A stretch of 64,000 nucleotides of DNA, taken from contig CT868008.1 in assembly GCA_000165425.1 (NCBI GenBank), forward strand, positions 372,001-436,000. The letters run 5' to 3'. Positions within the stretch are counted from its first letter, which is position 1. The number at the start of each line of letters is the position of its first letter. Source of the stretch: Paramecium tetraurelia (Eukaryota). Made by a program: the position numbers and the translations under genes. Below, in pieces: positions 6,200 through 63,140 of this stretch. The notes below the pieces were generated by a model. That model ran no database searches. It saw only the letters and a program-made list of their open reading frames with translations, and was not told where the DNA came from.

Positions 6200-7772
6200 T
6201 CATTCATTTTCATATAATTTTTTGGCTAAAATACCCCCATATTTTTTCTTTTCTAATTCTTATTATTGATATTCCTCTGGAGTTAATGGCTTCTTTTATT
6301 TTTGATTTTTGTTCTCTCCCTTAGGAATATCTTTAGGATCAATCATAAACATCTCCTCAATTTTTCTATCCAATTCTACATCATTTAAATTACGCTCTAG
6401 AACTTCACCTTCATCTTCATCTACAACCTCAGATTTATCTAGTTTTTAAGAGTTCATCAGATCATTTTCTCTCTCTTTTTCAATCCTTTCCTTTATTTTT
6501 GGATTCATCATTATGATTTCAAGATATTTTTATTCATCAAATGAGTATTGATTTAGCGTAATATCTTTGCTATATTTGACCACATCCTCATAGATTGTAC
6601 AAAACTTTTAGAAGATAGAAATCATAGATTCCAAAAAATCCATATTGATTCCTTAGAGATTCTTCATCCAAGCATTATTCCAGTCGGTTTCAACTGTCAC
6701 TGACTCCCAGAGAGTTCTCAAACGTACAGGTCCCATGTAAACTATGTTATCAATAGTTAGCACTATGCCGAGGAGGACTTAGAGCAAAGACATCTCCTTA
6801 ATTTCGTATAGTGTATGATCGTAAACAAGTTATTTGAATTCATTTAAACATTCAATTCTAAAGAGAAAAAACAATAAATTTATTTAAATACTTCTAATCT
6901 TTTGTCTCATAAAGAGGATCCAATTAGGCTTGCATGATTGATTTCATCTCTAAAAATACTTTATTTAAAAACTCTTCAACATTCGTATAGTAACTGGGTG
7001 GTCTCTCAAATGAGTAACTATCCAACCCATAAATATATTCATAATCAAAAGATAGATTATCAATATCATGCAAATCCTTTGTTGTATCAGTGTATCTAGG
7101 TTCTGTTCTGACAATCATATGTTCTGAGTTTCCACTATTTTTCCAGATCTCTAATGGGAATCTACTTGGATTATTGATGAAAATATCTAAACCCATAAGA
7201 AATCCAACTTTAATTAATCGATGTCTGCTTTGTGGGTCATAAAAGTTAAATATTTTTCCAGCCCTTGCCTTTCCCATATATGATAGTGTGATTCCAGGCA
7301 AATACTCTTAGATCTCTAAATAAGGATTCTCAAGTCGATTTGTTATTTTTTAATGCAATTATTTTAGCATAAATGTTGCTCTTTATAATTCCTTAGTCAG
7401 AACTTTGAATTCACTTGAGTCCCATCTAACAATTCTCTTATTTGGAACTGGGATTCCTAACACAATTGCTAATTATGAAAAGAAGTATCCTTAAGCAATA
7501 TTCGGGTACCCTTTTACAACTACAGATCCTTCATTAGTTTCCACAAATATGGCTCCTTTGTCTAAAGAATCACTTAATGCTATTGCCCTTAAATCGCTCC
7601 AAACAATTTTTTTGGTTAAAGTTTTGCTTGCAAAGTTAAATTCCTTTAAATTATAATCTAATGGGATATCACTCTTTCTGTCATCCTAACCTGGGCCTGG
7701 TCTCCTTAATGGGTATGGTGCATAATCAGGATGCTCCATTTTTCTTTTAGGTTTAGTAAATTAAGAAATCAT
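6200..7772 (-). CDS. Actin-fragmin kinase (AFK)-like protein, probable pseudokinase
   Basis: GAIFVETNEGSVVVKG, LAIVLGIPVPNKRIV, QEYLPG, LDIFINNPSRFPLEIWKNSGNSEHM and IYGLDS follow the AFK motif order. One 34-nt intron (6858-6891) restores the frame. Confidence 0.75.
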
Positions 7773-7824
7773 AGAAAAAATAATATATTTTATGCAAATA
7801 AAAATTACAAATTAAATATGATAA

Positions 7825-9198
<1,374 letters not shown>

Positions 9199-31844: not shown

Positions 31845-34823
31845 ATGAATTATGCTTCATAATTAGACTATTATCTATTTAGGGTTAAACTAAGATTGTT
31901 CAACAATAATTTTTAGAGCTAATAGGATTTATTAGGTTTTTCTTTCATTCGCGGATGGTAATAGTATATGTGGCAATTGAATTTCTTTTGTAATGTACTT
32001 GTCGCTAGCTCATCATATTGATTTGATATGAGTAGAGTATTCATTTGAAATTGCTATTGGATTGATGCAAGTTGCTCTTCCATTTAACATTTAACATTTA
32101 ATTAATTTATTTAATGCAACTTCCAACTTTTGGAGAAGTGTTTTTAACAACAGATGATGTTCAGGGAGGTTTGGAGAACTTGAAGCTGTTTAAGGGAAAA
32201 CTAATTAGCAGTTTATGTGGTGGTTGTAGGAAATTGTTTGTAATTGAAGAAGGATTAGATAATCAAGGGTATGAATGTAATTATATGTAGGATAATATCA
32301 ACATTGCATTCACCTGAGCATGACGAGTATGATTAAACATTTTCACAAGATTCACATAATTTATAATCATTTGATTTCAAAGGATCAATCAAAACAATAG
32401 TGACTGGGAAAAAGCATACAGTTTTCTTAAGTGATTAAGGAGATATTTATAGTTATGGTTATGGAGAATATGGAGCATTGGGACATGGTGGAATAATAGA
32501 GTTACCAATACCTAAGAAGATTATACGAATTTCAAAGGTTGATACAATTGCTTGTGGCGAGTATCATACTTTAGCATTAAGTAATGGAGATTTATTTGCA
32601 TGGGGAAGAGGGTTTGAAGGATAATTAGGAATTAGAAAGGACGTTGAAACAGCAGCATCTCCTATGTTTTTAAGTTACTTTTATAAGAACAAAATTTAAT
32701 TGATTGCATGTGGAGCCTATCATTCACTGGCTGTAGATTAATAAGGAGCATTGTATGGTTGGGGAGAGGCTAGATTTGGTTAATTGGGAACAGGTAGAAA
32801 GGTTTCTGAACAATTGCCATCTAGAATAGACTTCCCGCCTGAGTAGCCAATGAATTAGAGTGAGTTAAGAGTAGGTAAATTCTTGCCTTAAGAAACTTCC
32901 TTTTAAGTAGTTTCTATTTCAGGGGGATATGGACATTCTGCAGCTGTTACATCTACAGGGGAATTATATACTTGGGGGTTTAATCAGAGAGGACAATTGG
33001 GAAATGGAGATAAAGATAAGAAGAGTAGTTATTATCCAAAAAGATTAATGCAAGATATCAGTGGAATTTAATTGCCTGGTTTTAATAAGGTTATGTGTGG
33101 ATATTACACTACATATGCTATTGATCAAAAAGGAGGTCTTTGGAGTTGGGGTGGAGGTAATCTTGGTCATCAAAATGATAAATTAGTAGATTTACCAAGA
33201 AAAATAGTATTAGAGGATCGCAAATTCACTAACATGTATGCAAATGGATAAGCTGCAGCCTTCTTTGCTTCTTTAAGAACAATCTCTATGAAACCTAATC
33301 ATGGACCTTCTACTGGAGGCACCATTATTAGTTTGATTGGTACAGGATTCTGTGATACTGGCAGATAAAGTGCAAGATTCAAATTAGGTGATTAATATAC
33401 TGAGGTTGGATGTGAATATGATTCTTTAACTGACAGTTTCAGATGTACAACTCCAAATTTTGAAGAACATCTTGATAAATATCCAGTTGAATGTGTAGTC
33501 GAGGTCACTCTTGATGGTAATGTGTATGTTGAATGTGAGTAGAAGTTTCTAGTGTATTCATCCAAAATTGTTATTTCTTCACTCTAACCTAAATGTGCAT
33601 CCATCTAAGGAGGAACAACACTCATTATCAATATCAATATAGATGATCTGACTGCCTCCTATATGAAACATTTGAATGTTGGATTTCAACCAAGAAATAA
33701 GAAGAAGGAAGATAAATCCGCTATGAAATAAAGCACTAACAAACCATTGAATCCTTTGGATCTCAGTATCAATGATCCTGAATTAGATAAAGAAAACTGG
33801 ATGTGTGTTGAAGGCTTTTATGAAAAGGGAAAGATCTCTTGTACTATCCCTAATGTAAGTTAATTACAAACAGACAGTCTTAACTTTAATGTCGATGTAA
33901 GTATCAATGGATAATAATTTACTGGAAACCCTATGGTCTTTAGATTTTATGATATTTAAATAAAGGAATTACAACCAGATAATGTTATGTCTGAAGGAGG
34001 AGCTTCTGTTAAAATTATAGGTGATGGCTTTTTTGATACAACCAATAAAAGAGTGATCTTTAAAACTCTATTTGGAGAAAGACTCATTGAAATCATGTGG
34101 GATAAGCAAGATAGGTTTTATTCCTTTGTTGCTCCTCCTTTATCATGGCTCTTAGGTGGATAACAACCTACTCCAGAGTTGCTTAATGCTGTTAAAGCCA
34201 ATGGAGTCACTGCTTTATTAACACTTTCTGGTATTGAATGGATACCCATTGGAACATTCTATTACATTGATCCAGAAGTCTTGCGTCTTGGTCCTTTCGT
34301 TGTTGATGAGAAATTACCAGAAGAATAGAAGAAATTATTAATTCATTAAGAAGAATAGGAGGTCGACCATTTAAAGGATTTACAAGGAGCTGATTTATAA
34401 AAGAAGAAAGATGAAGTCTAGAAATAGTTGGAGGCTGAAGAATAAGAAATCAATTACTTCTTCAAGAAGGCTGGTCATTATTTGAGTGTCTATGGAGAAA
34501 ATCTAGCCAATACTGAATCTCTTTTAGTTTAATTCATTTTCAACGGCAACATGGCTGTTAATTAAAAGGTACAAAATATTATTTATTAAAAGGCTATATT
34601 CAAAAATAAAAGCAAATTAGTAGTATAAATTCCTGAATTAGAGTTGCCGACAGGAATCCATGACGTTGGTGTGGAAATTACATTCAATGGCACCTCATTT
34701 AGTCATTCTGGAAAAGTATTTAAATATATGGCATTTGATAAATCGTTGAATGAACAGTAGAAATTAAAGTTGGAAGACGAGGAAATTAAGAAATTAAAAA
34801 AAACATAACCTAAAAAGAAATGA
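31845..34823 (+). CDS. RCC1-repeat plus IPT/TIG domain protein
   Basis: RCC1 repeats ([62 protein letters not shown]), then IPT/TIG-like units ([50 protein letters not shown]). Start approximate. Confidence 0.88.
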
Positions 34824-60819: not shown

Positions 60820-62334
60820 TCATAATTCATTAACTATTGACAATTTTCTTATTCTTTTCATATTATTTACTTGTTAACTTTATAAATTGTCAATTTCTTG
60901 CAATGGCATTTTCAATTTTGAAACCTTAAATGCACAAAAATTTTATAACTAATTATTCTGATGTTCAATAGAAAGATTGTATATTTCTTATATTGTGTTT
61001 TTATCAACAGTTTAAGCTATATAATATTATGTTTTCTGTTTTAATTATATCATGTCTAGGTAATCACACAATTCTAATAGTCTAAAAAGTTCCTCTTTAT
61101 TTAGAATAGGAAGTATCAAATTATTTTTGTATGAGAAAATCAGAACAATCCCAAAAGCAATATGATCAACATATGATAAATCTAGTTAAAGTAATTGTCC
61201 TTCTACATAATCTCCATTGAATAGTTCTGTAAAGTATCCAGAAGCGTTAATAAGAACAGATTTATCAACTCCAAAACACTTTTCATCCGTTTAGATTAAG
61301 CAATCATATTAATCATTATAAAAATGAACTCCGTTTTCAAATTAAAAATAGTTTTCAAATTGATGTTATGATATTTCTTCATAAGGTTTAGATGGTAGTT
61401 CAACTGAAAGAGGCACAGTATTAACTAGAGGTAGTTCATAGAAGCATAAATCATTTTAATATTTTCCATCGAATCCACCAAAAATAACCAAAGAATTACC
61501 AATAACAGATGCACAATGTTTTCTTCTTGCTTTAACTTTAATGTCATTCTTTATGATCTAAATTTGATGAGTTTACAAATCAAAAGAGTAAAGTTCATCA
61601 GAATCTTTGTCATCCCTTCCTCCAAATAAATAGAATAAATCATCAAATTGTACACAAGATTGTCCCCACTTTGGAAATTAAGTTTTAAGTAAACACCATG
61701 AAATATTTATTTAATCTTCTTCTTACTTGCAATTTGCTATATAAATTGATGGAGTAAGACTGTAAGATTGAGTACATCCACCAATCAAGATTAGTTAACT
61801 ATTATGATAGTGAAGAGTTGCAAATCGTCTTGGTTCTGGCTTTTTCTAGTTCTCAACTTTGACTGTATATTATGTATTGTTGCATAAATCAACAATTTCT
61901 AATTCGTCTAGATCTTTACCAGATTCGCCTCCATATATATATAATTTATTATCGCCAACACAACCTGCATGATAAGTTCTAGGTATCAAATTGGTTTTCT
62001 ATTTAATCCAAGTGTTTTTGTTAAATGAATAGAGATCTCCAAATCTAGTTTTAGTTTAGCCTCCTCCACCTTGAACATATATGGTTCCGTTATTTATAAA
62101 CATGATATGGTTTGATCTTGGCTCTGGCACTTAACCAATTTGTAGTATGGTTTGCCATAAGTTATTGTCGAAATCATAAGAATAAAAATCATTTAGATAA
62201 TTGCCATCTTGATTATAATTCTACTTTATACCGAAACCACCAAAAATATATAGTTTTTCATCTAAGGCAATGCTTGAGTGTCCCCATCGACCTCCAGGAC
62301 CTTCGTTTTAACTATTTATAGTAATCCAACTCAT
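60820..62334 (-). CDS. Kelch-repeat plus BTB/POZ protein (LZTR1-like architecture)
   Basis: Kelch blades (GGRWGHS, PEPRSNH..YVQGG, PRTYHA..YIYGG, PRRFA..LIGG, YLFGG, RRKHCA..VIFGG), then BTB (YDCLIQTDEKCFGVDKSVLINASGYFTELF..LLELCDYL). Confidence 0.88.
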
Positions 62335-62423
62335 ATTGATGAAAAAGATAAAGTTTATATTATCGTTAGAAATTATAAATTAATCTTCTGATTGGCAATA
62401 ATTAATAAATATATTTTATTAAA

Positions 62424-62981
62424 ATGGATTATAAAACCATAAATTACGAACAAGGGAAGATTGAATATGGAAGTGAGGAAATATATGTTTCCATCATTTC
62501 CAAATTTATCAACATGACCTTTGAAAAATAACTGCAAGAATTGTACTTAGCCGTATAATTGCTTGATTAAAAAAGGGTTGAGAGGGCTTGCTTTGTCCTC
62601 AAGGGAAGTGTAGGGTAAATCGCTATTAATTAAGGCAGGAAGATAGATCCTTGCATTTGATTATCTGTAAAAAACAAATGCATTATATGATATCGCCAAG
62701 AAACAACAGCCTCATACTGACAGAGATATAATTGATTTATATCACAGATATTTTGACTTGATTGATGCCAGCATTCAATTGGCAGGAGAATTGTCCACGG
62801 CTGCTAAGTAATTGATAAATATTGAGGAAATTAAATCATATAGTAAATCTGTTTACAATCGATAGGGGATACCATTTGGCCAAAGTATATTGAATTTATG
62901 TAGAGATATATATAGGAATACAGTAAGCCAAGTGATAATTAATAACGATGTCAATAATGCAAGGAATGTGTCATATTTTGA
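62424..62981 (+). CDS. HPt (histidine phosphotransfer)-like protein lacking the phospho-His, with C-terminal CaaX (CVIF)
   Basis: Introns 62615-62642 and 62843-62865 give a 168-aa protein: ..KFINMTFEKQLQELYLAVQLLDQKRVERACFVLKGSVGQILAFDYLQKTNALY..CQQCKECVIF*. Confidence 0.72.
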
Positions 62982-63140
62982 ACAATGTATTATAAGTTAT
63001 TTAAAAATTGATCTAATCTTATATCTCATTTCTTAAGATCATAAATTGAGTTTAGATTTTTGGAAATTCCTATATATGTATAATAAATGCCGAATCCAAT
63101 AAAATAATATTATTATTGATTCAAGATTTTACGATTATTA

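Follow-up and report, generated by a model that had tools for sequence, protein, structure and literature searches.

A candidate membrane-anchored pseudo-HPt protein with Phe in place of the phospho-accepting His in Paramecium tetraurelia

The locus described here lies in a 64,000-nt window of the Paramecium tetraurelia genome (GenBank assembly GCA_000165425.1, contig CT868008.1, positions 372,001 to 436,000; coordinates below count from the first letter of this window), which is AT-rich, with a GC content of 0.20-0.32. On the + strand a gene starts at ATG 62424 and reads MDYKTINYEQGKIEYGSEE...QKRVERACFVLKGSVG, a frame that is open under the ciliate code (table 6) only. Two introns, both GT..AG, interrupt it and their removal restores a single frame; the joined exons make a coding sequence of 507 nt, of which the terminal TGA (62979-62981) is the lone stop, and the product has 168 residues (Table 1). 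This product very probably contains a helical bundle of the histidine phosphotransfer (HPt) type, in which Phe57 takes the place of the phospho-accepting His, and it ends in a predicted prenylation signal (CaaX box). An earlier interpretation made from the letters alone, here called the sequence-only reading, had placed the gene at these coordinates, with introns of 28 and 23 nt and a 168-aa frame, and had quoted its motif strings and the CQQCKECVIF end; splicing and translation return the same model and the same strings.

Table 1. Features of the HPt-like gene in the P. tetraurelia window.
Feature	Position	Strand	Description
Exon 1	62424..62614	+	Met1 to first 2 bases of Gly64; N-terminal HPt helices and ACFVLKGSVG motif; X3 contig end at 62614
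Phe57 codon TTT	62592..62594	+	Position of the HPt phospho-accepting His
Intron 1	62615..62642	+	28 nt, GTAAAT..GAAG; orthologue models read VGQILAF
Exon 2	62643..62842	+	Remainder of HPt-like bundle (residues 1-120 end at 62811) and start of extra C-terminal helix
Intron 2	62843..62865	+	23 nt, GTAAAT..GATAG
Exon 3	62866..62981	+	Helix 124-150, disordered tail, TGA stop
Cys-rich tail CQQCKECVIF	62949..62978	+	Cys159 and Cys162 upstream of CaaX box C165-V-I-F168 (62967-62978)

Transcript data came from three oligo-dT RNA-seq runs of the same species label (141, 238, and 160 reads placed, each of 58 nt) and from a contig run, X3. Coverage extends over approximately 62405-62993, with every read oriented as for a + strand mRNA, and read depth drops over both introns. 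At intron 1, the X3 contigs end at 62614 and resume at 62642, where 15 molecule ends are also found (ten in X20 and five in X21). At intron 2, three X21 reads carry the final 9 letters of exon 2 directly joined to 62866. Both of the junctions proposed from the sequence are therefore marked by ends and by depth, although formal splice joints are wanting and alternative contigs exist, as set out below. A 25-nt alternative for intron 1 (62610-62634), which preserves the frame and would yield the GSAGRQILAF of the paralogue model P0003, was set aside; no contig or read end backs its use.

The reads also carry minor variants at four sites (62477 G>A, 62534 G>A, 62694 C>T, and 62707 C>T; in at most 13 of 34 reads), which probably stem from ohnologue reads that cross-map or from differences between alleles or strains. 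All four of these variants, which fall in exons 1 and 2, are synonymous in the spliced frame, and no variant was reported among the RNA reads in the Phe57 codon.

The gene is already public as GSPATT00005306001 (A0BPT9, here P0004), with a deposited model of 163 aa and the UniRef name "HPt domain-containing protein". This deposited protein is identical to the spliced 168-aa product as far as residue 119, then differs, and has the same CKECVIF end. It implies two 19-nt introns (62809-62827 and 62885-62903) instead of the 23-nt intron 2; these were rejected, there being no dip in depth at either and newer orthologue models being without them. The public model therefore appears to be mis-spliced in its last third, where residues 120-143 differ.

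A word-indexed protein search found seven Paramecium proteins, among them P0002 of Paramecium pentaurelia (168 aa, annotated), which is identical to the spliced product at 162 of 168 residues. The exon structure is common to P0002, P0003, P0005 (Paramecium sonneborni), P0007 (Paramecium primaurelia), and the spliced model, and in all four Paramecium models besides P0002 have these junctions; in P0001, the P. tetraurelia ohnologue (GSPATT00009117001), and in P0006 the models read through intron 2. The frame of exon 3 is kept as far as Paramecium bursaria (P0008: ...WPSYIQF...RCQQCKECNMF). When 1.84 billion representatives were searched exhaustively with HMMER, only seven relatives emerged at E<=0.001. 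Two of these are distant members of full length, namely P0012 of the nassophorean ciliate Furgasonia blochmanni (EukProt) and P0014, an environmental protein. There is little room for doubt that the gene model is real and that it describes an expressed, conserved Paramecium gene.

Evidence for an HPt assignment was sought in sequence profiles. The Pfam Hpt family (PF01627) has a gathering cut-off of 24.6 bits, and the best score of the family is that of Furgasonia P0012, just under it at 24.0 bits (E 4.7e-5), P0014 reaching 15.2 bits (E 0.027). Other sub-threshold Pfam rows (Fe_hyd_SSU, Toxin_BN_H, Mad3_BUB1_I, and others) lie far under their own cut-offs and were dismissed as chance. Two profiles were built, A2 from the Paramecium proteins only and A3, which also takes in P0012 and P0014. 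When compared with the PDB sequences, A3 matched BRIC1, a designed repeat protein derived from CheA P1 (E 2.3e-7), CheA P1 itself (E 0.018-0.056), HptB (E 0.05), and MtHPt1 (E 0.14), with HPt-type proteins making up nine of the 16 sequences listed; P0012 by itself gave chance matches only. As an independent HPt profile, the PF01627 domains of six Escherichia coli K-12 proteins (CheA, BarA, RcsD, ArcB, TorS, and EvgS) were aligned with A3 using hhalign, giving P 3.7e-5 and a probability of 71% over 58 columns. In the controls, the best of 20 column shuffles gave P 0.037 and the reversed alignment 0.41. Likewise, 28 of 30 feature neighbours in the ESM Atlas are Hpt clusters (score 0.93). The profiles point to a remote homology with bona fide HPt domains that is detectable and, if weak, specific.

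The predicted structure agrees. AlphaFold2 was run on A3 with P0002, the P. pentaurelia orthologue, as target, and gave a model with a predicted local distance difference test (pLDDT) value of 86.2 and a predicted template modelling score of 0.78. It has six helices (8-15, 18-45, 49-65, 69-82, 90-118, and 124-150), the last of which is confident and lies outside the matched HPt region (residues 1-120); from residue 155 to the end at 168 the tail is disordered (pLDDT <50), with no packing. The top ten Foldseek rows for this model are all HPt or CheA-P1 chains (best E 0.03). When the Foldseek matches were re-scored with VIA-align, 19 of the top 20 rows were titled HPt (Z 13.6-10.1, over model residues 1-123).

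A VIA-align scan of 48,161 PDB representatives, independent of Foldseek, placed HPt proteins at ranks 1-9 (Z 13.4-9.7), the alignments taking in 95-122 residues within model residues 1-123. These include 3myf (Z 13.4, 113 residues aligned, root-mean-square deviation 2.3), HptB (12.4), a Chaetomium HPt (11.1), ArcB (11.0), YPD1 (10.6), the rice and Arabidopsis AHPs, and ShpA (9.7); the title of the entry at rank 5, 4euk_B, is uninformative. BRIC1 comes tenth, and the highest unrelated row is a design with Z 9.4. The HPt-type fold was accepted because the match spans the entire domain, cap helices included, because the ranking is family-pure, and because the sequence profiles agree. Residues 1-120 therefore very probably form an HPt-type helical bundle that is distantly homologous to HPt domains, and the fold proposed in the sequence-only reading is borne out by the model and the full scan.

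In this bundle Phe57 falls on the phospho-accepting His, both in the printed alignments with CheA-P1-type proteins and HptB (kAcFvLKGsvG against rAAHSIKGGAG and hTAHSFKGGSS, respectively) and in the hhalign alignment. After it, Lys60-Gly61-Ser62 of the H-x-x-K-G-S pattern are kept. None of the ten relatives has His at this site; Phe is found in nine (P0014 and the eight Paramecium models) and Tyr in one, Furgasonia P0012. The eight Paramecium models all read F-V-L-K-G-S, and P0014 reads F-D-L-K-G-A. The profile search gave His-less relatives only, with no His-containing member found within the family, and a second protein-word search with profile A3 found no further members. As all ten relatives are non-His, the loss is old and fixed, and is not a sequencing error or the mark of a young pseudogene; it is a family-wide loss, not a recent change specific to one paralogue. 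With the alignment on His, the ten relatives, and the invariant codon in the RNA reads in agreement, the claim that Phe occupies the His position stands. A pseudo-HPt combines the HPt fold with a residue that cannot be phosphorylated where the His should be, and the structural model and the alignments show that combination in this protein.

The other distinctive part is the tail, in which Cys at -4 is followed by two mostly aliphatic residues and a terminal Phe, directly before the TGA. Seven of the ten relatives end in a CxxF sequence, which is CIIF in four of them and CVIF in another; P. bursaria has CNMF, and P0014 has CQVF. The box is flexible and accessible in the model. A terminal Phe is accepted by prenyltransferases and suits geranylgeranyl or farnesyl transfer, and the two upstream Cys with the Lys are similar to what serves Ras-type tails as a second membrane signal. 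In the Furgasonia protein, NCEIF is internal and is followed by Q and a 29-residue hydrophobic stretch (approximately residues 180-213). Transcripts of F. blochmanni were handled with the universal code, according to PMC6920121. If the Q after NCEIF is a stop read as sense, this protein ends in a CaaX box too. Judging from the conserved box, anchoring by a lipid on the tail is probable.

Taken together, these features suggest a membrane-anchored pseudo-HPt. Cys165 would be prenylated, with Cys159 and Cys162 possibly palmitoylated, so that the HPt-like bundle would be tethered to the membrane where the transmembrane hybrid histidine kinases of ciliates reside. There the bundle would dock on receiver domains via its conserved HPt face. 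Being unable to accept phosphate, such a protein would not carry the relay but would modulate it, as an inhibitor or an anchor. This full reading, that of a non-phosphorylatable, receiver-docking regulator of the phosphorelay, is put forward as an evenly balanced proposition, and the function as a receiver-binding regulator is, as a part of it, a tentative assignment with a sizeable minority chance of being right. Inhibition, scaffolding, and a role outside two-component signalling are inseparable on the present data.

The hybrid kinases that such a protein would meet are numerous in ciliates. In Tetrahymena thermophila, PMC6324907 gives 70 histidine kinases, all but one of them hybrid, and another count, from PMC1557398, gives 83, many predicted to be transmembrane. 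A competition (decoy) model, as favoured in the sequence-only reading, needs canonical His-containing HPts in the same organism; if Paramecium is without them, this family could be the sole HPt-type partner of the hybrid kinases. The downstream partners of the dozens of hybrid histidine kinases in ciliates are essentially unstudied, and the protein offers a testable entry point to them.

A number of observations count against this reading. With regard to the transcript, no formal splice joints are listed for the 58-nt reads, and the splice evidence consists of read and contig ends and of loose ends. One X3 contig is unspliced across intron 2, a form that would encode 300 aa without a CaaX box. 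Another X3 contig aligns from 62638, with 7 unmatched letters before it, which fits a 24-nt intron 1 (62615-62638); this form keeps the exon-1 frame, stops after 70 aa, and may be a non-productive isoform. The CxxF end is absent from three of the ten relatives, two of which are the models that read through intron 2 and the third of which is P0012.

With regard to the HPt assignment, neither the exon pieces nor the seven Paramecium proteins have a Pfam Hpt match at E<=10. The Paramecium-only profile A2 finds no HPt among the PDB sequences, its sole match being a chance one to a G-protein-coupled receptor fusion (E 1.1), and with the E. coli HPt profile it reaches only P 0.0051 in hhalign. In the ESM Atlas, 159 of 256 features are shared, under the 170 that are typical of same-family matches. 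The fold was predicted from a seven-sequence alignment of the orthologue and not from the product of the window itself, Foldseek gives no match at E<=1e-3, and, as VIA-align itself notes, helical bundles can reach Z values of about 13 through arrangement alone. Furgasonia P0012 is without the Lys-Gly after the site, where it reads Y-V-L-H-H-C, with His-His at +3 and +4. Lastly, a Pfam scan of 51 open reading frames of about 220 aa or more, taken from the 281 in the window of at least 110 aa, detected no histidine kinase, receiver, or HPt domain in them. The outcome for the interpretation made from the sequence is therefore mixed: the gene model, the fold, the position of Phe57 on His, and the conserved CxxF are upheld, but the expected Pfam Hpt match is not obtained for the Paramecium proteins, and prenylation, membrane location, receiver binding, and a decoy role are proposed by analogy.

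Some of these same observations bear on the strongest competing explanation, in which the HPt fold was co-opted outside two-component signalling, leaving a lipid-anchored bundle that serves as an adaptor for partners other than receivers and in which the LKGS turn is structural only. Loss of His that is ancient and family-wide (none of ten) is in keeping with this, as are a similarity to canonical HPts too low for Pfam to pick up the Paramecium proteins, the loss of Lys-Gly as well in P0012, and the extra confident helix 124-150 outside the matched HPt region. However, K-G-S right after the site is kept in the Paramecium proteins, with P0014 counted too, and in canonical HPts this region is the receiver-facing surface, as seen in the YPD1 and AHP structures. 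In addition, the very many hybrid kinases of ciliates need HPt-type partners. An adaptor of this kind is an unlikely explanation, yet one to be taken seriously.

The anchored pseudo-HPt might alternatively be a positive scaffold, tethered to the membrane, that recruits or orients receivers or response regulators without inhibition and might shield phospho-Asp from hydrolysis. This version draws on the same structural evidence as the reading preferred here, and the data cannot tell inhibition from recruitment. We know of no characterised His-less HPts other than those of the plant AHP6/PHP type. These act as inhibitors (PMC3572949), which tells against scaffolding, whereas plant HPts that are bound to the membrane by transmembrane helices (PMC12785465 and PMC13206810) speak for it. 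Such a positive role is considered improbable.

The tail could also have a different use, its CxxCxxC cluster binding metal or forming disulfides, with no lipids attached and the terminal CVIF incidental. The cluster is invariant in the models of the Paramecium aurelia group and in P. bursaria, and a chance-level Pfam 4Fe-4S match covers this stretch in P0005 (E 0.085). However, P0014 keeps only C-D-C-Q-V-F, still with Cys at -4 and Phe last; the tail is modelled as disordered; and Cys at -4 with Phe last, found in seven of ten relatives, is what a CaaX box predicts, making a metal or disulfide cluster a poor candidate. Phosphotransfer kept through another residue, such as Cys56 (invariant in Paramecium and P0014) or His98 (invariant in Paramecium), is highly improbable, as neither residue is family-wide (P0012 has Ala at Cys56, and both P0012 and P0014 are without His98) and we know of no HPt that uses residues of this kind.

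In the neighbourhood, the HPt-like gene is divergent from a gene on the - strand (60823-62340) for a Kelch-repeat and BTB protein of LZTR1-like architecture (Kelch E 1e-51, BTB E 3.5e-11), the start codon of which is about 90 bp from the HPt-like ATG; reads of opposite orientation at 62250-62373 belong to it. Between 365 and 55996, the 51 scanned open reading frames show ordinary Paramecium gene content. They include an actin-fragmin kinase (6855-8060, - strand), an RCC1 and TIG protein (32184-34820, + strand), a tubulin-tyrosine ligase, Myb proteins, several protein kinases, an MFS transporter, a DUF726 protein, an oxysterol-binding protein with a PH domain, an AMP-binding enzyme, a MORN protein, a surface-antigen repeat, and an IF-2-like GTPase.

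Returning to the anchored pseudo-HPt, the domain call itself is not new, as it is in the UniRef label; what is new is the missing His together with the CaaX tail and their conservation across the family. Full-text literature searches, which did not extend to the supplementary tables of PMC6324907, turned up nothing published on HPt proteins of ciliates, prenylated HPts, or the identifiers of this gene. In the broadest form of the proposal, oligohymenophorean and nassophorean ciliates long ago remade the HPt fold as a receiver-docking module that is lipid-anchored and non-phosphorylatable, works beside the expanded transmembrane hybrid kinases, sets their output, and arose independently of AHP6. 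This is a speculative extension and is rather unlikely to hold in full. The origin would be independent of that in plants because no plant protein is among the seven whole-library profile matches and, if the proposal is true, pseudo-HPt regulation would have arisen a second time, independently and outside plants.

Compared with the canonical HPts (PF01627; YPD1, AHP1-5, ArcB, BarA, HptB, and CheA P1), the Paramecium protein is alike in the bundle fold of residues 1-120 and in the motif layout, x-x-L-K-G-S-x-G-x-I-x-A after the site, and like YPD1 and the AHPs it is a small stand-alone protein. It is unlike them in its Phe in place of His, its extra C-terminal helix, and its Cys-rich CaaX tail. 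The plant pseudo-HPts have Asn or Gln in place of His and inhibit by competition, whereas the ciliate family has Phe or Tyr, and in it the whole family is His-less and not one paralogue among canonical ones. An HPt fold without His is common to the plant proteins (AHP6 and the rice PHPs) and the Paramecium protein, and the former (PMC3572949) set a precedent for inhibition; they are, however, soluble and have no lipid box, whereas the Paramecium protein has a CaaX tail.

The plant TM-HPt proteins (PMC12785465 and PMC13206810) place a phosphotransfer-type domain at the membrane, as is predicted here. They do so by transmembrane helices and are described as phosphotransfer proteins, whereas the Paramecium protein has a predicted prenyl group and no His. 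The tail itself is most like that of the Ras-type GTPases, with a flexible end, Cys at -4, two aliphatic residues, and Cys and Lys upstream. In those proteins it sits on a GTPase, and in Paramecium it sits on an HPt-like bundle, where lipidation is predicted only. To our knowledge no lipid-tethered protein of the HPt type has been described before, and the Paramecium protein would be the first.

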